Positions 3,224 to 32,979 of a DNA stretch of 35,115 bases are shown piece by piece (within the stretch, counting starts at the first letter, position 1; every line of letters begins with the position of its first letter). A program made the translations under genes and the position numbers. The stretch lies in NCBI GenBank assembly GCA_001871815.1, contig MNVP01000085.1:1-35115 (forward strand), given 5' to 3'. The notes under the pieces are model-generated. The model saw only the letters and a list, made by a program, of their open reading frames with translations, searched no databases and was not told the origin of the DNA. The DNA is from Candidatus Omnitrophica bacterium CG1_02_40_15. Lineage in GTDB: Bacteria > Omnitrophota > Gorgyraeia > Gorgyraeales > Gorgyraeaceae.

Positions 3224-3299
3224 CTTCTCGAATTCGCTCGAAGAATAATATTGTTCGAGCGAATATCCTGACTATACATGTAAGCCCAGTCGAGAACTA
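3224..3299. repeat. Family C element (CTTCTCGA..CGCTCGAAGAATAATATTGTTCGAGCG..AGTCGAGAAC)
   Basis: Core identical to the copy at 23496-23598; the left arm is minimal. Confidence 0.88.
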
Positions 3300-4202
3300 T
3301 TAGAAATGAGTAAACCCACTAGGTTTAATTTTCTCTAATTTCCCATTCTTTCTTGCAAGAAAAAACCCTTTATGTATATCGCGTATTTGACCAATTCTAG
3401 AAAGCCTTGTTTCAAACGGCCATATATCCTCCAACCTATCTGCATGCTTCTCAGGTAATGTGAAAATTAATTCGAAGTCTTCGCCATCCCTCATAGCTGA
3501 ATTAAAATCTATGGCATCCTTAGAAACAGGCATTGTTTTTTCATAGATCACTGCGCCTTTATCGCTTTCTTCTAATATATGCCCCAGGTCAGCTAAAAGG
3601 CCGTCGGATATATCTATCATTGAATTAATCTTAAAATTTTTTACTAAAAACCTCGCTTCTTCAAGCCTAGGAGTAAAATTAAGGTGCTTAAGCTTTATTG
3701 AACCGCCTATATTTCCGGTAACAAATATAGCGTCTTTTTCCTTAGCCTTGCTTCTTAACGTTAAATTTTTTATTTCTACTTCTCCGATAAGCGCAATATT
3801 AATAATTATCTTGTTAGAACCAACTGTATCCCCGCCTACTAAATCAACGCTAAACCTGTCTGCAACTTTTCTTATACCCCTATATATCTCATCAGCGTAT
3901 TTTAAATCCAGAGACCCTGGAAAACCTATTGAAATAACTGCAAATTTAGGTATGCCTCCCATTGCTGCAATGTCGCTTATATTTGAAGAAAGGGCTTTTT
4001 TCCCCACCAATCTAGCCGAAGAACCTTTATAAAAATGTTTCCCCTCTAAGAGCATATCTGTTGTAAAAAGCAGGTATTTATCTTTTGTATATTTTAAAAC
4101 AGCTGCATCATCGCCTATGCCTTTTACAACCCGGTTGGACAATCTTATTGCCTTGCTTATCCTGTTTATAAAATTAAATTCTCCTAAATCTTTTAATCTC
4201 AT
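3300..4202 (-). CDS. thiL: Thiamine-monophosphate kinase
   Basis: GIGDDAA, NISDIAAMGG, GGDT, IDISDGL, GEDFEL. Confidence 0.95.
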   Translation of the reverse strand: MRLKDLGEFNFINRISKAIRLSNRVVKGIGDDAAVLKYTKDKYLLFTTDMLLEGKHFYKGSSARLVGKKALSSNISDIAAMGGIPKFAVISIGFPGSLDLKYADEIYRGIRKVADRFSVDLVGGDTVGSNKIIINIALIGEVEIKNLTLRSKAKEKDAIFVTGNIGGSIKLKHLNFTPRLEEARFLVKNFKINSMIDISDGLLADLGHILEESDKGAVIYEKTMPVSKDAIDFNSAMRDGEDFELIFTLPEKHADRLEDIWPFETRLSRIGQIRDIHKGFFLARKNGKLEKIKPSGFTHF

Positions 4203-7465: not shown

Positions 7466-7496
7466 TAGCGTATAGCGGATAGCGTTTAGCGTATAG
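7466..7496. repeat. Family A heptamer array, single arm
   Basis: tagcgta tagcgga tagcgtt tagcgta tag; no complementary arm. Confidence 0.85.
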
Positions 7497-7499
7497 AAA

Positions 7500-8264
7500 T
7501 TAAAATTTAAATAGCTTAATTGCATTTTCTGTAGTTATTTTTGCCACTTTTTCAAAGCTAATCCCTTTTATCCTTGCAACTTCTTCTGCAGCATATTTAA
7601 CATACATAGGTTCATTACGTTTCCCCCTGAAATCCTGGGGGGCCAGAAACGGCGCATCTGTCTCAATAAGAAGCCTGCCCATAGGGACCAGTTTTACAAT
7701 TTCCCTGAGCTTATCAGAATTTTTATAAGTGATATTACAGGTAAAAGATATAAAAAATCCCATATCCAAACATGTTTTTAGAAATTTTTCATCTCCTGAA
7801 AAACAGTGCATTACTCCGCTGACTGAACTGCCTATGACATCTTTTAAGATATCAATAATATCCATATGAGCATCGCGATTATGTATTATCAAGGGGAGAT
7901 TTGCGGGTTTTGCAGTTTCAAGAAGCCTGATAAATAGTTTCTTCTGATTTTCGCGAGATGAAATATTTTTATAATAATCAAGCCCGATTTCACCTATTGC
8001 CACAACTTTCGGCTTATTAAGAAACTTCGCGAAAAGTTTAATATCATTTTCGGTTACGCTATCAGCTTCATGGGGATGAATGCCTATAGCCGCATAAATA
8101 AAATCATTCTCCCCAGCAATCCTTATAGACCTAACTGTCCCTTCCATGCTGGAACCAACATTTATGATAAACCTTATGCCGCTGTCTATGGAACGCTTTA
8201 AAACAGTGCCCATATCATCTTTAAAATCCTTAAAGTCCAGATGGCAATGCGTATCTATCAGCAT
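7500..8264 (-). CDS. tatD: TatD-family DNase
   Basis: IDTHCHL, GIHPH, IGEIGLDYY, HNRDA, HCFSG, ETDAP, RNEP. Confidence 0.93.
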   Translation of the reverse strand: MLIDTHCHLDFKDFKDDMGTVLKRSIDSGIRFIINVGSSMEGTVRSIRIAGENDFIYAAIGIHPHEADSVTENDIKLFAKFLNKPKVVAIGEIGLDYYKNISSRENQKKLFIRLLETAKPANLPLIIHNRDAHMDIIDILKDVIGSSVSGVMHCFSGDEKFLKTCLDMGFFISFTCNITYKNSDKLREIVKLVPMGRLLIETDAPFLAPQDFRGKRNEPMYVKYAAEEVARIKGISFEKVAKITTENAIKLFKF

Positions 8265-15626: not shown

Positions 15627-15710
15627 TAGCGAATAGCGTATAGCGGATAGCGGATAGGTCTTTTTGCATGGAATTTTTTCTATACGCTATCCGCTCTACG
15701 CTAAACGCTA
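15627..15710. repeat. Family A heptamer-array hairpin with 22-nt spacer
   Basis: tagcgaa tagcgta tagcgga tagcgga tag-GTCTTTTTGCATGGAATTTTTT-cta tacgcta tccgctc tacgcta aacgcta. Supplies the ispD end (SV*). Confidence 0.9.
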
Positions 15711-16405: not shown

Positions 16406-16414
16406 AAATTCAAA

Positions 16415-16475
16415 AAGCTATAAGCCGTAAGCTATAAGTTTTAAGCTTAAAACTTATAGCTTATAACTTAAAGCT
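16415..16475. repeat. Family A' heptamer-array palindrome (AAGCTNT type)
   Basis: aagctat aagccgt aagctat aagtttt aagctt aaaactt atagctt ataactt aaagct. 16428-16463 is a perfect 36-bp palindrome. Confidence 0.88.
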
Positions 16476-16490
16476 AAATTTTTTGACTTT

Positions 16491-17504
16491 TTACTTCCTT
16501 GCGTTTTCCAAAAGTTTTGCAAAAATCATCCTGCCTGCTGCTGTCTGAAGCACGCTGCCTACAACCACATTCACGTTTTGGCCTATTAATCTCCTGCCGT
16601 TATCCACGACTATCATTGTCCCATCTTCCAGATACCCAACTCCCTGATTATACTCCTTGCCTTCTTTAATAAGCCTTGTTTCAAGCATCTCCCCTGGCAA
16701 AACCACAGGCCTCAAGGCATTGCTAAGTTCATTTATATTCAATACCCTTATGCCCTGTATCTCTGAAACCTTATTCAGATTATAATCATTGGTAAATATT
16801 TTTGCGTCAAGCACCTTGGCCAGTTTTACGAGTTTCAGGTCAACCTCTTTTATATCCGCAAAATCTTCATTGTGTATTTTAATATCGATATTTTGGCTCT
16901 TCTGAAGTTTCCCAAGTATATCTAGGCCTCTTCTCCCCCGCTCGCGTTTCAGGGAATCAGAAGAGTCGGCTATCTGCTGCAATTCCTTTAACACAAAACG
17001 CGGCACTATAAATTTTCCGTCTAAGAAACCTGTTTTACACACATCAGCAATTCTGCCGTCTATGATAACGCTTGTATCCAAAAGTATCATTTCATCCTTC
17101 TGATCCTGCCTTGAAAATTTAACATAGGGCACTATTATATTAAATTCATCCCTGCCGCGCATTGCCATGATCATGCCAAGATAACAGAATATAAGCGTAA
17201 GGATAACGCGCAGAGAATACACCAGATTCTTGTCCATAGAAATAAGCGCCATGGTATCAGATACCAGTTTCGCCATTATAAGCCCGAACAATAACCCGAA
17301 AACAGCTGACGAAAGGCCTCTTACAGACACCTTTCTCATGGTAAATTCAAAAATAATTATGAGTACAGCTGCTAAAAAACCTATCGAAGCGCCCAATACG
17401 CTGAAATCAGAAGAACCTATCTGCGCAAACGACCCTACCTGAAAGCCTATTATCATGCTAAGTATCACAAAAAATATCCGTATAAATATTAAGGTCATAT
17501 ACAA
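16491..17504 (-). CDS. Membrane PIN/TRAM-domain protein (YacL family)
   Basis: Four N-terminal TMs, LDTSVIIDGRI, RGRRGLDIL, TNDYNLNKV, GYLEDGTM, QTAAGRMIF; upstream of ispD. Confidence 0.92.
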   Translation of the reverse strand: MYMTLIFIRIFFVILSMIIGFQVGSFAQIGSSDFSVLGASIGFLAAVLIIIFEFTMRKVSVRGLSSAVFGLLFGLIMAKLVSDTMALISMDKNLVYSLRVILTLIFCYLGMIMAMRGRDEFNIIVPYVKFSRQDQKDEMILLDTSVIIDGRIADVCKTGFLDGKFIVPRFVLKELQQIADSSDSLKRERGRRGLDILGKLQKSQNIDIKIHNEDFADIKEVDLKLVKLAKVLDAKIFTNDYNLNKVSEIQGIRVLNINELSNALRPVVLPGEMLETRLIKEGKEYNQGVGYLEDGTMIVVDNGRRLIGQNVNVVVGSVLQTAAGRMIFAKLLENARK

Positions 17505-17525: not shown

Positions 17526-17578
17526 AGCTGGAAGTTTTAAGCTGTAAGCTTTAAGCTTATGGCTTATAACTTAAAGCT
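17526..17578. repeat. Family A' heptamer-array palindrome, second copy
   Basis: agctgg aagtttt aagctgt aagcttt aagctt atggctt ataactt aaagct; same AAGCTT centre and ataactt aaagct tail as the first copy. Confidence 0.85.
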
Positions 17579-17583
17579 GATTT

Positions 17584-18315
17584 TTATTTCTTTTTCTTGC
17601 TCTCCCTAGGCTTCGGTGGTTTAAACAAAAGCTTCCACGGATTCTGTTTAATATCCAATATCATTTCGTCAATATGATTGTACAGCGTGTCATCAGACAT
17701 AAGCCTTCCGATTGTGCCCTTACCCTGCTTGGCATAAGATAAAAAATCCCTTAGGTCTCCGCTCAACGCCTCCATATTATTAACTGTATTTTTTAAAGAC
17801 ACTCTTAAACTATCGTCTCCTACAATCTTATTCACGGATTCTGTAAGAGCGCCTATTTTCCCTATAAGTTCCTTAGTGGACCTGGCAATTTCTTCTGTTG
17901 ATATAGGGTCACATCCTCTAAGAGTGTCTCCTTTTTGCAGAAGCCTTGCGTCCCTGGTGCCAGGGGAAATTTCCAGATATTTTTCTCCCAGAAGCCCCAG
18001 CGTATTAATAGATGCCTTTGCGTTTTCATTAATCCATGTATTCTGAGATACCCACACAGTTAGCTTAACAAAGGGCTTATTTTCCTTTTCATCAAAATAA
18101 ATATTTATCTCCTGCACCTCGCCCACCTGAACCCCTGAATAACGCACAGGCGCGCCTATGCCTATGCCATTTGCAAAGCTGAAGACTACATTAAGGGTAT
18201 ATCCGCGCTTGACGCTGTAAAAATTTCCTATAGAAAATATTATTACGGACAATATAACTATCCCTATGAAAATAAATATACCCACTTTCAGCTCAAAATT
18301 CATGCGTGTAAACAT
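17584..18315 (-). CDS. mlaD: MCE/MlaD family protein
   Basis: N-terminal TM, GIGAPVRYSGVQVGEV, GLLGEKYLEI, helical C-terminal region. Confidence 0.88.
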   Translation of the reverse strand: MFTRMNFELKVGIFIFIGIVILSVIIFSIGNFYSVKRGYTLNVVFSFANGIGIGAPVRYSGVQVGEVQEINIYFDEKENKPFVKLTVWVSQNTWINENAKASINTLGLLGEKYLEISPGTRDARLLQKGDTLRGCDPISTEEIARSTKELIGKIGALTESVNKIVGDDSLRVSLKNTVNNMEALSGDLRDFLSYAKQGKGTIGRLMSDDTLYNHIDEMILDIKQNPWKLLFKPPKPRESKKKK

Positions 18316-18341: not shown

Positions 18342-18456
18342 CGCTGAACTACGCAGAACTTAACGCGGAATTACGCTGAAACTACATGCTAATTTCCGCG
18401 TTTTTCCGCGTCTGCTCCGAGTAAAACTAGGAGCAGCTTCTGCGTTATTCCGCGAT
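18342..18456. repeat. Family D decamer-array hairpin (ACGCNGAA units)
   Basis: Four (A)CGC[TAG]GAA units, then four TTC[CT]GCG units with inserted hairpin CTGCTCC-GAGTAAAACTA-GGAGCAG. Matches 31040-31180. Confidence 0.87.
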
Positions 18457-18458
18457 TA

Positions 18459-19213: not shown

Positions 19214-19290
19214 TAGCGTAGAGCGTTTAGCGTATAGCGTATAGGGATAATAGCTATTATTATCCGCTATACGCTCTACGCTATCCGCTA
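19214..19290. repeat. Family A heptamer-array hairpin
   Basis: tagcgta gagcgtt tagcgta tagcgta tag, palindromic spacer ATAATAGCTATTAT, then tccgcta tacgctc tacgcta tccgcta. Last CTA is the ruvB stop. Confidence 0.9.
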
Positions 19291-20338: not shown

Positions 20339-20415
20339 TAGCGTATAGCGTAGAGCGTTTAGCGGATAGGTCTTTTTGCATGGAATTTTTTTTATACGCT
20401 CTACGCTAAACGCTA
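20339..20415. repeat. Family A heptamer-array hairpin with the same spacer as the 15627 copy
   Basis: tagcgta tagcgta gagcgtt tagcgga tag-GTCTTTTTGCATGGAATTTTTTT-ta tacgctc tacgcta aacgcta. Last CTA is the ruvA stop. Confidence 0.9.
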
Positions 20416-22315: not shown

Positions 22316-22490
22316 AATGAGCGCTTGACTTATGGAGCGAGTAAAACGAGCGAACATAAGTCAATGCGCGAATTAATCCCGCCCTTTTGAATAGCAAGCT
22401 GAGAAACCTTGCTAAAAGGGCGGGATAAGTTCGGACAAATAAGTTACGTCACATACTTCTTGGAATAGGGCTCCGTAACTTATGTCCTCA
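22316..22490. repeat. Family B three-hairpin element, copy 1
   Basis: AATGAG..TTGACTTATG/CATAAGTCAA..CGAATT, then ATCCCGCCCTTTT..AAAAGGGCGGGAT, then TTCGGAC..ATAAGTTACG/CGTAACTTAT..GTCCTCA. Confidence 0.92.
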
Positions 22491-22491
22491 C

Positions 22492-23484
22492 TTAAAATCT
22501 CTTTTTATGCTCTATGCCAAAAAATTCTTCATTTTCTTTTAATTTCATCTGAAATACCTGGCCATTATCCAGCTTGTATTCCAGGCTCATCTCGTCCAGA
22601 TTGTCCCTTTTTTTATAAGGGGGCAATTCTTCTCTAGCGAATGTCTTAAACCCAACTGATACCTTGTCGCCGATATCCTTAACCATCTTAAGGCTATCGT
22701 AGCCATCTTTACTTATATCCCAGCCGTCCCATACTATTGTTTTCATATCAGACTTCAGTTTTATGTAACTCAGGAGATCAGAGCCCACAACATTTCTCAG
22801 GTCTATATAACCTTCCATTGTAAAAGTAGCCTGAGCCTGCTTGATCCTGGAAGCCACTATGTTGATTATAGGCCCTATGCCCTGTATTCTTATATCAGCG
22901 GAATCATACCATATAGGGCCTATCTTCCCAGATCTAGAGCTTATAAAACCGCTTGATTGGAGGTTATTGAGCGGGCCTTTTATATTGAAAAGTCCGTTCA
23001 TGACGCCAGTCACAACGCCTGGCCTTTTTGCCTTTGTCATTATTGCAATATCTTTTAAGTTCGCCCTGAGTATTTCAAAATATATATTTGTTTCAAACTG
23101 CTTTTTTAATCTTACAGTGCCTTTTAAACGATATGCATTTCCAAAATTCAGAGAATAGGCCTCAAACTTATCTTTTGTAAGCTTGAAGAATACCTTTAAA
23201 TCCGGCAACGCGCTTGAATTTATGGTCATATTGCTGGAATAAAGTTTCCCAGTCAGGCCATTATCTTTTAACACCTTGGCCTTTAAAATAAAATTGCCGG
23301 ATAGGATCGCGCCTTTAATATCCAGATTGTCTATTTTTAATTCTGAAACCAACTCTTTATTGTCAAAGAGATAAAGATTCAGAGAAACTGCTTTATCGAT
23401 TCCTAAATCTATCGCTCTGGCGCTGGCTGTAACAACAAAGATTGAGCTTGCAGCCAATGCTATGATCTTTAAATTATATTTCAT
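22492..23484 (-). CDS. Exported beta-rich hypothetical protein (possibly AsmA/TamB-like)
   Basis: 330-aa ORF in operon orientation; signal peptide-like N-terminus (ASARA); alternating hydrophobic/Gly beta pattern; C-terminal Phe. Family assignment is inference. Confidence 0.7.
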   Translation of the reverse strand: MKYNLKIIALAASSIFVVTASARAIDLGIDKAVSLNLYLFDNKELVSELKIDNLDIKGAILSGNFILKAKVLKDNGLTGKLYSSNMTINSSALPDLKVFFKLTKDKFEAYSLNFGNAYRLKGTVRLKKQFETNIYFEILRANLKDIAIMTKAKRPGVVTGVMNGLFNIKGPLNNLQSSGFISSRSGKIGPIWYDSADIRIQGIGPIINIVASRIKQAQATFTMEGYIDLRNVVGSDLLSYIKLKSDMKTIVWDGWDISKDGYDSLKMVKDIGDKVSVGFKTFAREELPPYKKRDNLDEMSLEYKLDNGQVFQMKLKENEEFFGIEHKKRF

Positions 23485-23495
23485 ATATAAACATG

Positions 23496-23598
23496 TACTT
23501 CTCGACTCTGCTCTCTTGATATGCTATCGTGACCGCTCGAAGAATAATATTGTTCGAGCGGACGTCATTGCCATACTTGTAAGTTCAGTCGAGAACTA
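23496..23598. repeat. Family C element
   Basis: TACTTCTCGACT-arm1-CGCTCGAAGAATAATATTGTTCGAGCG-arm2-AGTCGAGAACTA. Confidence 0.9.
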
Positions 23599-23605
23599 TC
23601 TGTAA

Positions 23606-26062
23606 TTATTTTAATACAAGCTTCCCGTTCTCTGCAGTCACCTTTACAGGTTTCCCTTTTTCAAAACGTTTTGAGATAATTTCCTCTGCCAAAGGATCTT
23701 CCAGAAATCTTTGTATAGTACGCTTCAAAGGCCTTACGCCAAAAATAGGGTCAAAACCTTTCTCTATCAAAAAGTCTTTTGCCGACTGGTCAAGGCTTAT
23801 ATCCACAGACTGCTCTTTCAGCCTGGCCTTAACCTCTTCCATCTCTATTTCTATAATCTTATAGAGATCCTCTTTTGTAAGCGGATGGAATACTATTATA
23901 TCGTCAATCCTGTTTAAAAATTCAGGTTTAAATGTTTTTTTAACCTGATCCAGAAGCCTTTCTTTCATATCCTTGTAAGTGACTTCCTGGGATTCTGATT
24001 TAAAACCAAGGGAACCCTGTTTCCTGAATATCTCTGCTCCAACATTGGATGTCATGATAAGTATTGTATTTCTAAAGTCCACTTTTCTGCCGAAACTATC
24101 TGTAAGGCGCCCGTCTTCCAGAACCTGAAGCAGTATATTAAACACATCAGGGTGAGCCTTTTCTATTTCATCCAAAAGTACGACTGAGTAAGGCCTGCGC
24201 CTGACTTTTTCTGTAAGCTGTCCGCCTTCTTCATAGCCTACATATCCGGGAGGCGCTCCTACAAGCCTCGACACATTAAATTTTTCCATGTACTCAGACA
24301 TATCAAGTTGTATGAGCGCATCTTCATTGCCGAACATGAATTCTGCAAGGACTCGCCCCAAATGGGTTTTGCCTACGCCTGTAGGCCCAAGGAATATAAA
24401 AGAGCCTATCGGCTTCTTTGGATCCTTTATGCCCGCGCGCGAACGCCTGACTGCATGGGCAATAGCGCTTATAGGCTCATCCTGGCCAATTACCCTATTG
24501 TGCAGCTCTTCTTCCATCTTCATAAGCCTTTCAGACTCTTTTTCTTCAAGCCTGAAAATGGGTATGCCTGTCCATTTTGAAACTATATTGGCGATCATTT
24601 CTTCGTCAACCTTTGGCCTGGCTTCCATCCTGGATTTTTTCCATTCCTCGCGCGTCTTGTCTAGCCTTAGCCTGGCTTTCTTCTCCTCATCCCTCAGATT
24701 AGCGGCTTTTTCAAAATCCTGGTTTTTTATCGCAGAATCTTTTTCTTTATGGATATTCTCTATCTCGCTCTCCATATCCTTTATTTCCTTAGGAGCAGTC
24801 ATAATGGAAAGCCTGGCCTTTGCGCCTGCTTCATCTATCAAGTCTATAGCCTTGTCAGGTAAAAACCTTCCTGCGATATACCTGTCCGAAAATTTGGCTG
24901 CAGCATCTACCGCAGAATCCGTAATCTCAACTCTATGATGAGCTTCATACCTGTCCCTGAGGCCTTTTAGTATTTCCACTGTTTCATTGACACTGGGAGG
25001 TTCAACCATAATTGTCTGAAAACGCCTTTCAAGCGCAGCGTCTTTTTCTATGTGTTTTCTGTACTCATCCAAGGTAGTTGCTCCTATACACTGTATCTCG
25101 CCTCTTGAAAGAGCGGGTTTCAGTATATTTGAAGCGTCTATTGCGCCTTCTGCGCCTCCGGCCCCAACCAGAGTGTGTAATTCATCAATAAAAATAATCA
25201 CATTTTCAGACCTCTTTATCTCATCCATTACTGCTTTTATTCTCTCTTCAAACTGGCCTCTATATTTTGTGCCAGCTACCATAAGCGCAAGATCCAGGAT
25301 TATCACCTTTTTATCCTTTAATATTTCAGGCACATCGCCTTTCACTATATTTTGCGCAAGGCCCTCTACTATTGCTGTTTTCCCGACACCTGCCTCGCCT
25401 AAGAGCACTGGATTATTTTTTGTGCGCCTTGAAAGTATCTGGATAACCCTTTCTATTTCGTTCTCTCTCCCTATTACAGGGTCTAATTTATTGTCGCGCG
25501 CAAGTTGAGTCAGGTTTCTGCCAAACGCGTCAAGCGCAGGAGTTCTAGAGCCTGTTCTCTGCTGCGAAGCATGGCCTGCTACTTGAGCCTGTCCTTGCTG
25601 ATGGCCTCCGAAACCAGGCTGCATGTTAGAGCCTAAAAGCTCTGCTATCTCTTCTCTAACTTTATTCAGATCAAGCCCAAGATTTACCAGCACCTGAGAC
25701 GCAACGCCTTCACCCTCTCTTATAAGGCCTAATAAAATATGCTCTGTGCCTATATAGTTATGGCCGAGAGACCTTGCCTCTTCGCTTGAAAGCTCTATGA
25801 CTTTTTTAGCTGTAGGAGTGAAAGGTATGTCCCCTGAGACAACTGTAGGCGGGCCTGGTTTCACAATCTTTTCTATCTCCATCCTTATCTGCTGTAGATT
25901 TAGGCCCATTTTTTGAAGCACGACTGCAGCCACGCCTTCCCCTTCTCTTAAAAGCCCAAGCAATATATGCTCAGTGCCTATATAATCGTGATTAAACCTC
26001 TTCGCCTCTTCTTTTGCTAAAAGTATGACTTTCCTCGCGCGTTCTGTGAATCTGTTGAACAT
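23606..26062 (-). CDS. clpC: ATP-dependent Clp protease ATPase ClpC
   Basis: [10 protein letters not shown], two Clp-N repeats, GEAGVGKT and [11 protein letters not shown] middle domain, [12 protein letters not shown] loop; AAGGAGGG SD. Confidence 0.97.
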
Positions 26063-26078
26063 GATCAAACCCTCCTTA

Positions 26079-26138
26079 TAGCGTTTAGCGTATAGCGGAT
26101 AGGAAAACTATACGCTAAACGCTATACGCTATCCGCTA
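26079..26138. repeat. Family A heptamer-array hairpin
   Basis: tagcgtt tagcgta tagcgga tag-gaaaa-cta tacgcta aacgcta tacgcta tccgcta. Confidence 0.9.
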
Positions 26139-26146
26139 ATCATTTA

Positions 26147-27196
26147 TTACTTCCCCAACTTCTCCCTGATTATCTCCGCCCTTTTAACGTCTCTTTGATT
26201 AGGGCTGAGTTTTTTCTTTTCCAGTTTTTGAAGGTGCGCAGGCTGAGTTATCACAAAAAGTTCATTAATAAGAGTCCTGTCTGCCTGTTTTATTACGCCT
26301 AAATCAACTCCCAGCCTTGCAAGCGAAAGAAGATTTATGGTCTCTGTGCTTGTTATTATATGGGCGCTTTTCAATGTCCCATATGCCCTCCATATCCTGT
26401 CTTCCAAGGCTTCTCTATTTTGCGAAAGAAGCGTTTCTCTAGCGCTTTGTTCGTGATCGACTATCTGTTTTATAATCCTATCTATGTTATCGATTATATC
26501 GTCCTCTTTAGGGCCCAGAGAAACCTGGTTTGATATCTGGAAAAAATTACCGCTCGCCTCCGTACCCTCCCCGTATAGGCCGCGCGCAGTCAGACTTAAT
26601 TTTGTAATAGCCTGCAGCACTTTTCCGATCTGTTTCGTCATTACAAGCGACGGCAAATGCAGCATTACAGATGCCCTCATGCCGGTCCCTGTATTTGTAG
26701 GGCAGGCTGTGAGGTAGCCGAAATCCATGGAATACGCAAAATCCAGGGAATTCCCTAATTCAGTATCTATGTCATTTATTATCTGCCATGCATCTTTTAA
26801 ATTAAAACCTGATTTCATGACCTGCATGCGCAGGTGGTCTTCTTCATTGATCATTATGCTGATGACTTCATCCTGGCCCACAGACAGGCCTTTATTTTCC
26901 GCGTCTATCATATGTTCCTTGCTCATAAGATGCCTTTCCACAAGAAATTGCTTATCTATAGAGTCCAGCTTTCCTATTTCCACAAATAATGAGTCTTTTA
27001 ATTTTTTGAGCGACAAAATACTTTCTTTTGAAGTCCAAAGGACTGCCTCCTGTTCTTTCTTGCTTGCCCAGTGAGAAAAAGGATAATTCGCAAGATTTCT
27101 TGCCAGCCTTACGCGCGAAGACATCACTATATCACAGACAGGGCCTGTGCACCTGATCCACTCGCCGGTATTATTTAAAAGATCGTCTAAGGTCAT
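26147..27196 (-). CDS. mcsB: Protein-arginine kinase McsB
   Basis: SSRVRLARN, INEEDHLR, GYLTACPTNTGTG, RGLYGEG, QPAHLQ; between mcsA and clpC. Confidence 0.95.
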   Translation of the reverse strand: MTLDDLLNNTGEWIRCTGPVCDIVMSSRVRLARNLANYPFSHWASKKEQEAVLWTSKESILSLKKLKDSLFVEIGKLDSIDKQFLVERHLMSKEHMIDAENKGLSVGQDEVISIMINEEDHLRMQVMKSGFNLKDAWQIINDIDTELGNSLDFAYSMDFGYLTACPTNTGTGMRASVMLHLPSLVMTKQIGKVLQAITKLSLTARGLYGEGTEASGNFFQISNQVSLGPKEDDIIDNIDRIIKQIVDHEQSARETLLSQNREALEDRIWRAYGTLKSAHIITSTETINLLSLARLGVDLGVIKQADRTLINELFVITQPAHLQKLEKKKLSPNQRDVKRAEIIREKLGK

Positions 27197-27208
27197 GAAT
27201 CCTCCTTC

Positions 27209-27376
27209 AATGAGCACTTGACTTACGGAACAAGCATAGCGAGTGAACGTAAGTCAATGCGCGAATTGAATCCCGCCCTTTTGAATAGCAAGTTGAGAAA
27301 AATTGCTAAAAGGGCGGGATAAATTCGGACAAATCACTTACGGAAACCATAGGTTTCCGTAAGTGATGTCCTTATT
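27209..27376. repeat. Family B element, copy 2
   Basis: Same architecture; third hairpin ATCACTTACGGAAACC-ATA-GGTTTCCGTAAGTGAT; abuts the mcsA stop. Confidence 0.92.
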
Positions 27377-27872
27377 TATTATTCTTCTTCTCTAATTCTC
27401 TTATCTTATCCCGCAGTTTCGCTGCTTCTTCAAAATCCTCTTTCTGTATTGCCTTCTGAAGTTTTTCCTTCAAGGCATCGAATTCATTCTTTGCCTTGAC
27501 TATCTTGACTATTTTTTTAGGGGATTTGCCATAGTGCTGCGTGGACCCGTGTATCCTTTTTAAAAGAGGGGCGAGCGCTTCTTTAAAAGCATTATAGCAT
27601 TCGCCGCAGCCAAGCCTTCCCACCTTTTTAAAATCTTCATAGGTAAGCCCACACTTAGGGCATTTAAGCTTAGGCTCTGTTTTTGTTTTATTGAACTGCG
27701 TGCCAAGATCAGCGAGGCCTGCCAAAAGATCAGAAAGCCCGAAATGGCTTTCCATTTGGGCGCCTTTTTTCTGAGCGCATTCTTCGCACAGATGCAGCTC
27801 TGTTATTTGTTCATCTATTATTTCTGTAAGATGCACTGTAGCCTGGCTCTTGCCGCATATATTGCAAACCAT
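27372..27872 (-). CDS. mcsA: McsA (UvrB/UvrC-motif zinc-binding activator of McsB)
   Basis: Four CxxC motifs, GRLGC, IHG..H.GK, EDFEEAAKLRD; ATG 27872 with AAGGAGG SD. Confidence 0.94.
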   Translation of the reverse strand: MVCNICGKSQATVHLTEIIDEQITELHLCEECAQKKGAQMESHFGLSDLLAGLADLGTQFNKTKTEPKLKCPKCGLTYEDFKKVGRLGCGECYNAFKEALAPLLKRIHGSTQHYGKSPKKIVKIVKAKNEFDALKEKLQKAIQKEDFEEAAKLRDKIRELEKKNNK

Positions 27873-27885
27873 TATTTCCTCCTTC

Positions 27886-28091
27886 AATGAGCACTTGACT
27901 TACGGAACAAGCATAGCGAGTGAACGTAAGTCAATGCGCGAATTGAATCCCGCCCTTTTGAATAGCAAGCTGAGAAAAATTGCTAAAAGGGCGGGATAAA
28001 TTCGGACAAATCACCCAGCACCTTTTTAATATTCAGCATCTTTTCTTTAAAAACTTTAAATACATAAAAGGTGCTGGGTGATGTCCTCATT
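27886..28091. repeat. Family B element, copy 3
   Basis: One mismatch to copy 2 over the shared part; third hairpin ATCACCCAGCACCTTTT..AT-rich loop..AAAAGGTGCTGGGTGAT. Confidence 0.92.
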
Positions 28092-28963
28092 TAATATTTT
28101 ATGCCATCCGTCTTTGTTAATTTTCTGAATTCCTTCATCAGATTTAATGTAATTTTCCCTGGTTTTCCGTCTCCGATAACCCTTTTGTCCACGCGCACAA
28201 CAGGTATGATCTCTGCCGCAGTGCCTGTAAGAAAACACTCGCTAGCCGTAAAAATATTATGCCTTGTAATTACTTCTTCTTTTACTGCCATGCCAATCTT
28301 CTTTGCAATATCCATCACGCACGCCCTTGTAATGCCTTTAAGTATCCCGAGATAAGCAGGCGGAGTGATCAGGTTATTATCTTTTATAATAAAAATATTA
28401 TCTCCTGTGCATTCTGCCACATATCCATGGGCGGTAAACATTAATGCCTCTTCATATCCGCAGTTTAATGCCTCTATTTTTGCAAGAATATTGTTAAGGT
28501 AATTCAGAGATTTAATCTGAGGATTTAATGCCTCTGGTATATTCCTTGGCGTAGGCACTGTAATAATGCTCAATCCTTCCTTGTACATCTTTTCAGGATA
28601 AAGCTTTATGTTATCTGTAATGATAATAATAGAAGCGGACTTGCACTTCCTTGGATCCAGGCCCAGATCCCCTATGCCTCTTGTAACAATAAGCCTGATA
28701 TAGGCATTGTCCAGCTGATTTAATTTAAGCGTTTCCACGATTGCCTTTATCATGTCTTCTTTGGAAAGCGAAATATTTAGCATGATGCCTTGACTAGACT
28801 CGTAAAGCCTGTCTATATGCTCCTTTAATTTAAAAATAAGCCCAGCATATGAGCGGATGCCTTCAAACACTCCGTCGCCGTACAAAAGCCCGTGGTCAAA
28901 AACAGAAATCTTTGCCTCGTTTTTCTCAAAATATTCACCATTAATATAAACCTTTAATCCCAT
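28091..28963 (-). CDS. ilvE: Branched-chain amino acid aminotransferase
   Basis: DHGLLYGDGVFEG, KSLNY, LKGITR, FLTGTAAE, GKPG. Confidence 0.94.
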   Translation of the reverse strand: MGLKVYINGEYFEKNEAKISVFDHGLLYGDGVFEGIRSYAGLIFKLKEHIDRLYESSQGIMLNISLSKEDMIKAIVETLKLNQLDNAYIRLIVTRGIGDLGLDPRKCKSASIIIITDNIKLYPEKMYKEGLSIITVPTPRNIPEALNPQIKSLNYLNNILAKIEALNCGYEEALMFTAHGYVAECTGDNIFIIKDNNLITPPAYLGILKGITRACVMDIAKKIGMAVKEEVITRHNIFTASECFLTGTAAEIIPVVRVDKRVIGDGKPGKITLNLMKEFRKLTKTDGIKY

Positions 28964-29773: not shown

Positions 29774-29778
29774 AATAT

Positions 29779-29831
29779 TAGCGGATAGCGGATAGAAAAA
29801 CTATACGCTATACGCTCTACGCTAAACGCTA
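29779..29831. repeat. Family A heptamer-array hairpin
   Basis: tagcgga tagcgga tag-aaaaa-cta tacgcta tacgctc tacgcta aacgcta. Confidence 0.9.
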
Positions 29832-31039: not shown

Positions 31040-31180
31040 AATCGCGGAACCACGCGGAAGCTGGCCTTCACTTCGTTCAGGCCAGACGCTGAACTACGCG
31101 GAAATTCGAGTTCAGTTTCCGCGTTTTTCCGCGTCAGTTGCGAGTGAAACGAGCAACTGCTTCTGCGTATTTCCGCGATT
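31040..31180. repeat. Family D decamer-array hairpin, full symmetric copy
   Basis: AATCGCGGAA..ACGCGGAA[CTGGCCT-TC-AC-TTC-GT-TC-AGGCCAG]ACGCTGAA..ACGCGGAA / TTCCGCGT..TTCCGCGT[CAGTTGC-GA-GT-GAA-AC-GA-GCAACTG]TTCTGCGT..TTCCGCGATT. Confidence 0.9.
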
Positions 31181-32846: not shown

Positions 32847-32979
32847 AGATCCTTCAGATGCTCCTGTTCGTCGCATCTTCAGGATTAATTCGCACTTATC
32901 AGTTACGGATTTCAAAGAAACCCGTAACTGATGTGCTCATTAAAAAACCGCGTAGGCACCACATACATCCTATGCGGTT
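32847..32979. repeat. Three adjacent hairpin elements, including a solo family-B half unit
   Basis: AGATCCTTC-AGATGC..GCATCT-TCAGGAT; AATTCGCAC..ATCAGTTACGG/CCGTAACTGAT-GTGCTCATT; AACCGCGTAGG/CCTATGCGGTT. Confidence 0.8.

Follow-up and report, generated by a model that had tools for sequence, protein, structure and literature searches.

The 35,115-nucleotide contig MNVP01000085.1 of Candidatus Omnitrophica bacterium CG1_02_40_15 (GenBank assembly GCA_001871815.1; hereafter the window) carries three copies of a three-hairpin intergenic composite, which raises the question of what kind of element this is and how it came to lie between the genes. The original prediction, made from the sequence alone, saw inverted AATTCG...CTCATT units around a constant hairpin and proposed a BIME/REPIN-like doublet or a structured RNA, with a variable arm that could act as cargo. 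It was found that the elements are recent, lineage-specific occupants of the spacers between stop codon and ribosome-binding site (RBS), in the sense of the flanking genes. The evidence leans towards the window copies being gene-less mosaic palindromic DNA elements, miniature relatives of a nuclease mini-element, spread by recombination or gene conversion. They look like miniature derivatives because complete relatives with the same arms carry a nuclease gene.

The window is contig C87 of a 1.17 Mb genome (G000; 39.6% GC, approximately 80% complete). Its ClpC-like protein is 71-75% identical to the counterparts in metagenome-assembled genomes (MAGs) of Candidatus Omnitrophota, and its sequence words are present in groundwater metagenomes. 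Each composite consists of a hairpin A, a central hairpin X1 and a hairpin B, arranged in gene sense as stop codon, A, X1, B and RBS or ATG; one solo B is also present. The features are the following.

22316..22374, minus strand, hairpin B of copy 1, in gene sense TAATTCGCGC-ATTGAC-TTATG...CATAA-GTCAA-GCGCTCATT
22376..22426, no strand, central hairpin X1 of copy 1, perfect 13-nt arms ATCCCGCCCTTTT/AAAAGGGCGGGAT and an asymmetric 25-nt loop
22427..22493, minus strand, hairpin A of copy 1, in gene sense AAGTGAGGAC-ATAAG-TTACG...CGTAA-CTTAT-tt-GTCCGAACTT
27209..27267, minus strand, hairpin B of copy 2, then GAAGGAGGA (RBS, 27200-27208)
27270..27320, no strand, central hairpin X1 of copy 2
27321..27374, minus strand, hairpin A of copy 2, with a shortened foot TAAGGAC in place of TAAGTGAGGAC
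27886..27944, minus strand, hairpin B of copy 3, then GAAGGAGGA and the ATG of the McsA-like gene (27875-27873)
27947..27997, no strand, central hairpin X1 of copy 3
27998..28092, minus strand, hairpin A of copy 3, foot and 5-bp box (ATCAC/GTGAT) as in copy 2
32887..32941, plus strand, solo B-type unit, TTAATTCGCAC-TTATCAG-TTACG...CGTAA-CTGAT-GTGCTCATTAA

Hairpin A follows the layout (T)AAGTGAG-GAC-box-TTACG-apex-CGTAA-box'-nn-GTC-CGAACTTA, in which the box is 5 bp long; X1 reads ATCCCGCCCTTTT-loop-AAAAGGGCGGGAT (arms in short form CCCGCCCTTTT/AAAAGGGCGGG), and B reads TAATTCG-CAC-...-GTG-CTCATTAA. The feet of the units can be summarized as (A/T)A(G/A)TGAG...CGAA(C/T)TTA. No ORF (open reading frame) was found inside the window copies.

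The genes in the composite-bearing part of the window lie on the minus strand. The operon order is class IV aminotransferase gene, copy 3, McsA-like UVR-motif gene, copy 2 and McsB-like guanido phosphotransferase gene; downstream of ClpC, a 330-aa ORF is followed by copy 1 and by an MlaE-family permease gene. The A hairpins reach past the units as originally delimited and overlap the upstream stops (22492-22494, 27372-27374 and 28091-28093). In copy 1, A begins with the last two bases of the TAA stop (22494-22492), in copy 2 it abuts the stop codon of the McsA-like gene (27374-27372), and in copy 3 it overlaps that of the aminotransferase gene (28093-28091). At the other end, B of copy 1 lies 4 nt before the ATG of the permease gene (22311-22309) with no Shine-Dalgarno sequence in between, and the McsB-like gene after copy 2 starts at 27196-27194. 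The region of the solo unit displayed no synteny with the relatives searched.

The sequence ATCCCGCCCTTTT occurs six times in the window, in three inverted pairs (22376/22414, 27270/27308 and 27947/27985), against 0.13 occurrences expected; a count of six was reached in 0 of 100 shuffles. AATTCG...CTCATT units number four, against 0.37 expected. The inverted units around a constant hairpin and the solo unit at 32887-32941 are all present as originally described, and far above chance. Stem 1 covaries between copies, as had been claimed, with TTGACTTATG/CATAAGTCAA in copy 1 and TTGACTTACG/CGTAAGTCAA in copies 2 and 3, and the third arm differs in all three copies while remaining paired, its apices being 25, 15 and 63 nt long in copies 1, 2 and 3 (63 counted from the ATCAC/GTGAT box). 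The 63-nt apex of copy 3 (CCAGCACC...GGTGCTGG) is unlike that of copy 2. Over 138 nt, RBS included, copies 2 and 3 share 99% identity (family D3). The three-hairpin fold of copy 2 has a calculated energy of -81.1 kcal/mol as RNA (z -13.5) and -51.7 as DNA (z -12.6), equalled in 0 of 200 shuffles. In the longer composites the minimum-energy fold pairs the outer feet (AATGAG/CTCATT and CGAA/TTCG), giving a four-way junction.

Pairing is maintained well beyond the window. In 55 parsed units, 699 of 715 stem pairs were Watson-Crick, five were G-T and seven were A-C. The 5-bp box occurred in 26 distinct versions and was paired at 96.7%, against 50% (maximum 62.5%) in 2000 shuffles. The larger alignment proposed as a check of covariation was built from 29 A-type units of G000 and many Omnitrophota MAGs, and it bore the claim out: 97.1% of 626 cells were paired, both sides had changed in 12 of 22 pairs, and two-sided changes numbered 111 against four one-sided ones. 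The covariation score was 0.415 versus 0.129, the observed value being reached in 0 of 500 shuffles, and slid controls were paired at 27-36%. An RNA under structural selection should tolerate G-U far above A-C, which is not the case here, and this points to palindromy of DNA rather than to an RNA family. Of the two original proposals, the BIME-like architecture with pairing kept by double changes stood, and the structured RNA did not: G-T wobble is no commoner than the A-C mismatch, sister species differ in whether they have the elements, and Rfam gave no match at its gathering threshold in the whole window, leaving only sub-threshold, chance miRNA-like hairpin matches at E<=1.

Other signals were sought in the composites. 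A hammerhead or K-turn in the TGAG...CGAA feet was rejected, since the CUGA core and the 3-nt bulge were missing by eye and Rfam was silent. No intrinsic terminator was called on the sense strand of any of the three composites; a single antisense call fell on hairpin A of copy 2. TTGACA-like words within X were judged by eye to be too poorly spaced for a promoter, and no link between A box and B box, or between box and flank, was seen by eye in the three window copies.

The position of the units with respect to genes was then considered for the whole genome. X1-arm hairpins number 43 in G000, against 0-3 in each of 40 relatives, and a deliberately strict pattern finds approximately 75 A or B units; there are 26 A-X1-B composites in which A and B are inverted. 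Both unit flavours read TGAG-NNN...NNN-CGAA on one strand, with two tandem G.A mismatches, and this strand is the gene sense in A and the antisense in B. Gene calls were made with a crude ORF picker. By these calls, 67 of 73 units agree in sense with the adjacent gene, taken as the upstream one for A and the downstream one for B, and six oppose it (binomial 4e-14). A started between -10 and +2 nt relative to the end of the upstream ORF in 21/23 cases, and the end of B at most 23 nt before the next start in 27/44, the remainder being mostly artefacts of the ORF picker. Within single contigs, the units change sense when the genes change strand, and their orientation is therefore tied to transcription and not to replication. 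The X1 loop showed no such preference: among the 26 composites (regular-expression definition, two double-strand duplicates taken out) its orientation relative to the A-to-B frame was 13 versus 13, and an earlier hand count over 31 gave 13 versus 18. Central-hairpin types other than X1, an 82-nt ATCCTTGCCATTTTGCG... (X2) and a 45-nt ATCCCCCCTTCATTC..., have ATCC...GGAT feet throughout.

Some B units appear to be involved in translation starts. By hand count, the hairpin is immediately preceded by a Shine-Dalgarno sequence (AGGAGG or GAGG) in nine B units with a spacer of approximately 26 nt, and their ATG follows CTCATT at a distance of 2-4 nt. Where the spacer motif is degenerate (AGAAGA), four to five B units have their own downstream Shine-Dalgarno sequence and three have none (hand count); in many spacer-less B units the ATG follows directly, without such a sequence. 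Core genes, among them those for IF-1, L36 and an S14-like protein, start 2-4 nt after a B hairpin, and their only Shine-Dalgarno sequence lies 50-70 nt upstream, before the hairpin. Judging from sequence, this arrangement looks like a hairpin-bridged RBS. Phage T4 has genes in which a hairpin is known to bring the Shine-Dalgarno sequence up to the ATG. Loci of G000 in which a start follows a hairpin in this manner include C40:6180-6700, C92, C66, C50, C52 and C5:19121-19194.

Comparison with sister species revealed that the same sites are empty or filled with other modules, at a flank identity of 83-95%. The junction of copy 2 is element-free in 9/9 same-genus genomes (TAAG-AGGAGAAGCC-ATG-like, approximately 10 nt, flanks 80-93% identical). 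That of copy 3 is empty in three genomes and holds different hairpins in seven others, among them A units with other centres in G011 and G007. At the copy 1 junction the following states were observed.

G005: empty, TGA-AAGGCTTTT-ATG
G001: empty, TAA-GGAGCGTTC-ATG
G000: A box ATAAG, X1, B3
G011: A box ATCAT, X2, B with spacer
G007: A box ATGAC, a fourth centre, B3 with the same CGC-TTGAC box

Four further sites were compared on contig C40. Site E3 holds an element in G000 and G011 and none in three others (3/4 relatives); between the two filled genomes B is 100% identical within flanks of approximately 92%, the A box is one compensated pair apart, and apex and centre differ. Site E4 is filled in G000 alone and empty in 3/4 relatives. 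At the infA-rpmJ site, B stands alone in G011, and A, X1 and B are found in G000. No target duplication was detected at the five filled/empty junction sites compared, which also goes against identification with a miniature inverted-repeat transposable element (MITE), a match that the original prediction had named as a refutation. The native spacer is replaced at filled junctions, sometimes including its Shine-Dalgarno sequence. Element ends vary: the TGAG foot is missing from copy 2, the identity of copies 2 and 3 extends through the RBS, and the ORF upstream of E3 has come to terminate in AAG TGA within A. In two groundwater runs there are contigs, from relatives occurring alongside, that join across copies 1 and 2; neither within-strain variants nor loop flips were found in the DNA contigs of these runs.

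The dominant centre differs species by species. G000 has 43 X1 hairpins and G011 has one, while X2 arm matches number 31 in G011, ten in G000 and zero in three other genomes. At the three shared sites compared (copy 1, site J3 of copy 3 and C40 E3), G000 has X1 and G011 a CCTTG..ATTTT-armed centre. Modules (5-bp box, apex, X and B) have been exchanged between copies and between species, with swaps at conserved feet. A small CCCCGCCCTTT(G/C)...AAAGGGCGGGAC hairpin was also seen nested in A or B apices of G000 (C68:25047-25131, C10:9866-9952, C8:4614-4700 and C5:12865-12944), so hairpin tips are points of insertion or exchange.

The complete relatives of the central hairpin were recognized among GIY-YIG nuclease loci. 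Six of the 43 GIY-YIG loci examined in the family are elements of 280-300 nt in which perfect 14-20-nt arms surround an ORF of approximately 80 aa. Those at L330 (G041) and L322 (G023) lie exactly between an A unit and a B unit; at L340 the arm-flanked element precedes a B unit, and the arms of L333 and L335 (ATCCCGCACCTTTT) are one indel off X1. The genomes of 185,579 species were scanned for X1 arms 235-265 nt apart, and the six matches consisted of two GIY-YIG elements with exact X1 arms and four chance pairs. One exact-arm element, with arms CCCCGCCCTTTTGGCG/CGCCAAAAGGGCGGGG, sits between A-like and B-like hairpins in an Omnitrophica MAG, bringing to three the arm-flanked nuclease elements located between A-type and B-type hairpins. 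The other exact-arm element lies within a 23S rRNA region. The X1 arms are identical to those of two GIY-YIG elements and similar to those of the six family loci; the interiors share little, and what the coding element encodes is a nuclease and no known transposase. Arm-flanked ORFs were co-directional with the flanking genes in 8/8 cases (by eye). Nuclease clades track arm types, with identities of 62%, 62%, 91% and 50% within types and approximately 35-45% between them.

The nuclease of the full-length relatives matches PF01541 at 58-69 bits, and the nearest solved structures are the UPF0213 proteins 1ZG2 (1.8e-9) and 1YWL (3.2e-6) and SLX1 6SEH (0.0048). By these similarities, the cargo nuclease belongs to the minimal Slx1-like/UPF0213 lineage. 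Minimal Slx1-like GIY-YIG proteins are described as stand-alone and mainly vertically inherited (Dunin-Horkawicz 2006, PMC1564403). The idea that the variable arm could act as cargo was thus right in spirit and wrong about the arm: in complete relatives the GIY-YIG gene sits in the central hairpin, and the variable third arm hosts only swapped or nested small hairpins. No real ORF-bearing A or B unit exists in 38 genomes, the three pattern matches being neighbouring units.

Two side observations concern GIY-YIG genes in other settings. At L345 (CAZHYN010000005.1:14915-15441) a GIY-YIG mini-element with X1-type arms lies inside the apparent 3' part of a 23S rRNA gene, in rRNA sense, resembling an intervening sequence. 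Many other small GIY-YIG genes of the family adjoin tRNA genes and are followed by GGGGCGTG..CCCGTTCCAAA hairpins (L334, L336, L338, L339, L341, L342 and C18:4323-4562 of G000); tRNA-adjacent sites may be a second habitat of such genes.

The route by which the elements move was inferred from these patterns. X1 would be a miniature, MITE-like derivative of the GIY-YIG nuclease mini-element, and the composites would spread and be homogenized by homing-like or template-switch recombination or gene conversion, which would replace the native spacer without a target duplication. The cruciform or four-way-junction shape would be a natural substrate for a structure-specific nuclease, and the same templated process, rather than selection on RNA, would keep the arms perfectly Watson-Crick. 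Indirect hints of gene conversion are the lack of duplication, the co-identical flanks of copies 2 and 3 and the species-specific X at shared sites. Co-transcription of elements inside operons would leave only the sense orientation to survive. Some copies may have been adopted by the host, with A supplying stop codons and the Shine-Dalgarno sequence of B variants being brought next to the ATG by the folded hairpin. A wider formulation can be offered only tentatively, namely an undescribed mobile-DNA class of Omnitrophota made of cruciform cassettes, the autonomous form having two perfect arms and between them the gene of a minimal Slx1-like, structure-specific GIY-YIG nuclease. Such cassettes would nest with A and B to give composites shaped like four-way junctions, would spread and replace each other within stop-to-RBS spacers by nuclease-triggered gene conversion, and would have rewired the starts of core genes through split Shine-Dalgarno sequences.

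Several observations weigh against a nuclease-derived mobile element. No arm-flanked GIY-YIG gene was found in G000 (80% complete) or in G011 (94%, approximately 16 X2 miniatures), so any nuclease action on the window copies is putative. The GIY-YIG genes of G000 on C79 and C18, considered as flanked masters, were rejected, being without arms or units; among the 30 best homologues of the C79 type, units lie nearby at one locus only. The miniature loops share few bases with the subterminal parts of full-length elements, and the derivation of the miniatures accordingly draws on arms and position. Half of the arm-flanked full-length elements examined (four of eight) stand without an adjoining A or B. 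No real case of A abutting B without a centre, as a landing pad, was found in 38 genomes, the ten matches of that scan being one unrelated GGCCGAA hairpin locus. Finally, the orientation counts depend on the crude gene calls, and the orientation lock together with the rule of A at the stop and B at the start would equally fit a host function in the mRNA.

Such a function could take the form of RNA punctuation serving the host, in which the upstream cistron has its 3' end protected by A (and X), the transcript is cut at or close to X, and B shields or exposes the 5' end and start of the downstream cistron, any mobility being incidental. The strict sense orientation (67 versus 6) fits this, as do the placing of A at stops and B at starts, solo units included, the lack of a sense-direction U-tract terminator, by which read-through is expected, and the phylum-wide conservation of the A primary sequence with its two sense-strand tandem G.A motifs. 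The genes for IF-1, L36 and the S14-like protein, which start 2 nt after CTCATTA with their sole Shine-Dalgarno sequence before the hairpin, would fit as well. However, the same junctions function element-free in sister species: G005, the closest by flank identity, lacks the element at 5/5 junctions (copy 1, copy 2, 26072-26138, E3 and E4) and has a different, 132-nt element at the copy 3 site. In addition, the X loop works either way round and G-U is not in excess of A-C. This explanation is considered unlikely.

Alternatively, the palindromes could need no enzyme at all and spread only by template switching and ectopic gene conversion between short feet (TAA...GGAGG, TTACG/CGTAA and ATCC/GGAT), the GIY-YIG genes being passengers that landed in loops. 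Missing target duplications and imprecise ends (the copy 2 foot, the shared RBS and the AAG TGA of E3) would be expected of such a process, as would module swaps at conserved feet, perfectly Watson-Crick arms, inverted loops, and bursts in G000 and G011, whose genomes hold no cognate nuclease gene. Against it, nuclease clades co-vary with arm type, as would be the case for an element and its enzyme, the mismatches and bulges of A and B are kept phylum-wide although pure self-templating should erase them, and 40-60 copies per 1.2 Mb are high for an unaided process. This account is considered rather improbable.

Mobilization as ordinary REP/BIME repeats by a REP-associated tyrosine transposase (RAYT; TnpA_REP, Y1 HUH transposase) is largely refuted and highly improbable. 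It is true that G000 has two Y1_Tnp proteins (C3, 193 aa, and C63, 179 aa; REP_Tyr_transpos scores 56 and 63 bits, under the NCBIfam cut-off of 80), that a solo unit is found 137 nt past the end of the C63 gene, and that Y1 genes occur in 36/38 family genomes, the two Y1-less ones having zero and two unit matches. But no true unit was found at most 1.5 kb from 30 Y1 genes of 30 family genomes (89.7 kb scanned), and G048 has two Y1 genes and no units. The GT[AG]G tetranucleotide that is conserved in the 5' foot of REP hairpins, and serves as the REP criterion (PMC6006769), is absent as GTAG from the 55 parsed units, so the defining features of the REP/RAYT comparison fell away. The C63 enzyme has the motifs listed there for subclass 2.4 (NHIH, WQ and YIxNNP; PMC6006769) and its own GTAGGGACAGC double-foot REP. 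The gene itself (C63:2353-2892; L032:1417-1956, minus strand) is preceded by a GTAGGGACAGC...GCTGTCCCTAC double-foot REP and contains a similar one in frame, and an upstream word, CAGATGTGTCATATA, is common to both Y1 genes of G000.

With a gene-less relative of the nuclease mini-element still favoured for the window copies, the composites can be set beside known systems. REP, BIME and REPIN elements of Enterobacteria and Pseudomonas, associated with RAYT, are likewise high-copy, short, imperfect intergenic palindromes, co-transcribed and in several families per genome, with inverted unit pairs around a linker that form mosaics. The present units differ from them in lacking both a GT[AG]G guide foot and a unit-flanked RAYT, in being phylum-wide rather than confined to species or genus, and in their strict stop-to-RBS placement in gene sense. 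Their linker is itself a hairpin, and the complete form of this hairpin has a GIY-YIG gene.

The BOX elements of Streptococcus pneumoniae (boxA-boxB(n)-boxC) and the Correia/NEMIS elements of Neisseria are modular transcribed intergenic hairpin repeats, non-coding and able to alter the expression of neighbours, and Correia elements duplicate TA. The composites resemble them by description in being modular, hairpin-forming, transcribed and intergenic, and differ in the nested hairpins, the hypervariable yet paired 5-bp box, the lack of target duplication and the nuclease-bearing full-length form. Free-standing GIY-YIG homing endonuclease genes are known as well, for example the seg genes of phage T4. 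They too are small nuclease genes between intact host genes, and spread by gene conversion would leave co-converted flanks and replaced spacers without a duplication, as is observed here. In contrast, the nuclease here is a minimal Slx1/UPF0213-type domain of approximately 80 aa without a DNA-binding extension, of a type reported as vertically inherited (PMC1564403), it lies between perfect 14-20-nt inverted arms, and it is accompanied by dozens of gene-less miniatures per genome.

MITEs share with the composites the lineage-specific bursts and, as presumed for X1, gene-less short derivatives that have the terminal inverted repeats of a longer coding element; unlike them, the composites have no target-site duplication and no transposase, their abutting arms fold as one hairpin, and they nest with other modules. 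Rickettsia palindromic elements are palindromes of small genomes inserted in frame inside genes. The likeness extends to palindromic repeats in small genomes, tolerated at constrained positions, whereas the units of family B lie between stop codon and RBS. The kind of element, a modular palindromic intergenic repeat of BIME/BOX/MITE-like type, is thus known from other phyla. New are the sense lock, the Watson-Crick-only compensation and the 13:13 flip-flop of the loop, together with duplication-free filled/empty junctions, species-specific centres at shared sites and exact-arm full-length elements with an Slx1-like nuclease.

If the nuclease-related reading is true, a minimal Slx1-type nuclease, regarded in prokaryotes as housekeeping and vertically inherited, would be the engine or the cargo of a phylum-wide selfish element, and a route of DNA mobility based on DNA shape instead of a transposase would be added to those known. 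It would also account for the presence of hairpins in almost all short spacers of these compact genomes, for assembly breaks at such places, and for mis-annotated starts and RBSs, since a Shine-Dalgarno sequence may lie 60-70 nt upstream, bridged by a hairpin. It would further be a warning that compensatory stem changes in repeated DNA do not necessarily imply a functional RNA.

The distribution of the units was assessed at two levels. The unit pattern has 64 matches in G000 and is present in 36/38 family genomes (17 genera); the next-highest genome has 42 and controls have 0-3. A stricter A pattern was scanned against one genome per species of all prokaryotes. Among the 80 matches listed, 41 bear an Omnitrophota label, and the A unit is complete in 35 of these; among the 39 listed matches from elsewhere it is complete in four, three in 'Planctomycet*' MAGs and one in an archaeal MAG contig. 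In the complete cases listed, another hairpin, with (A/G)YCC feet, always comes after A. Conservation across the phylum extends to the primary sequence of A and its two sense-strand tandem G.A motifs. By title or abstract, no paper was found on palindromic or hairpin intergenic repeats in Omnitrophota, and none on mobile inverted-repeat GIY-YIG intergenic elements of bacteria among the matches listed, mostly papers on organelle genomes.

Further repeats accompany the composites. A 132-nt repeat, TGAGGCAC...GTGCCGAA, occurs in G000 at C40:10558-10689 (L160) and approximately 12 other places, often contig ends. It has TGAG/CGAA feet as in the A and B units, is nested in an inverted-repeat element of approximately 270 nt, and is found in dozens of copies in G005 and G011 (80-97% identity), occupying the copy 3 junction of G005. 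Considered as a possible master copy, it was set aside; in Rfam it gave no match at E<=1 save a chance CRISPR-repeat one.

Nearly all spacers of the window hold some palindromic element, and at most compared junctions G005 is without such elements. A family of tandem heptamers, TAGCGNA with its complement, forms long intergenic palindromes at 1929-2002, 7466-7510, 15627-15703 and 19214-19290, with further copies at 20339-20415, 26072-26138 and 29778-29831. The copy at 26072-26138 is missing at the junction of G005, where 3 nt are present, and in metagenome data a relative has a contig that joins across this copy. A TAAGCTN heptamer hairpin family is found at 16409-16492 and 17526-17595, hairpins of the ACGCGGAA type at 18363-18457 and 31086-31180, and those of the CGCTCGAAGAATAATATTGTTCGAGCG type at 3235-3307 and 23534-23606.

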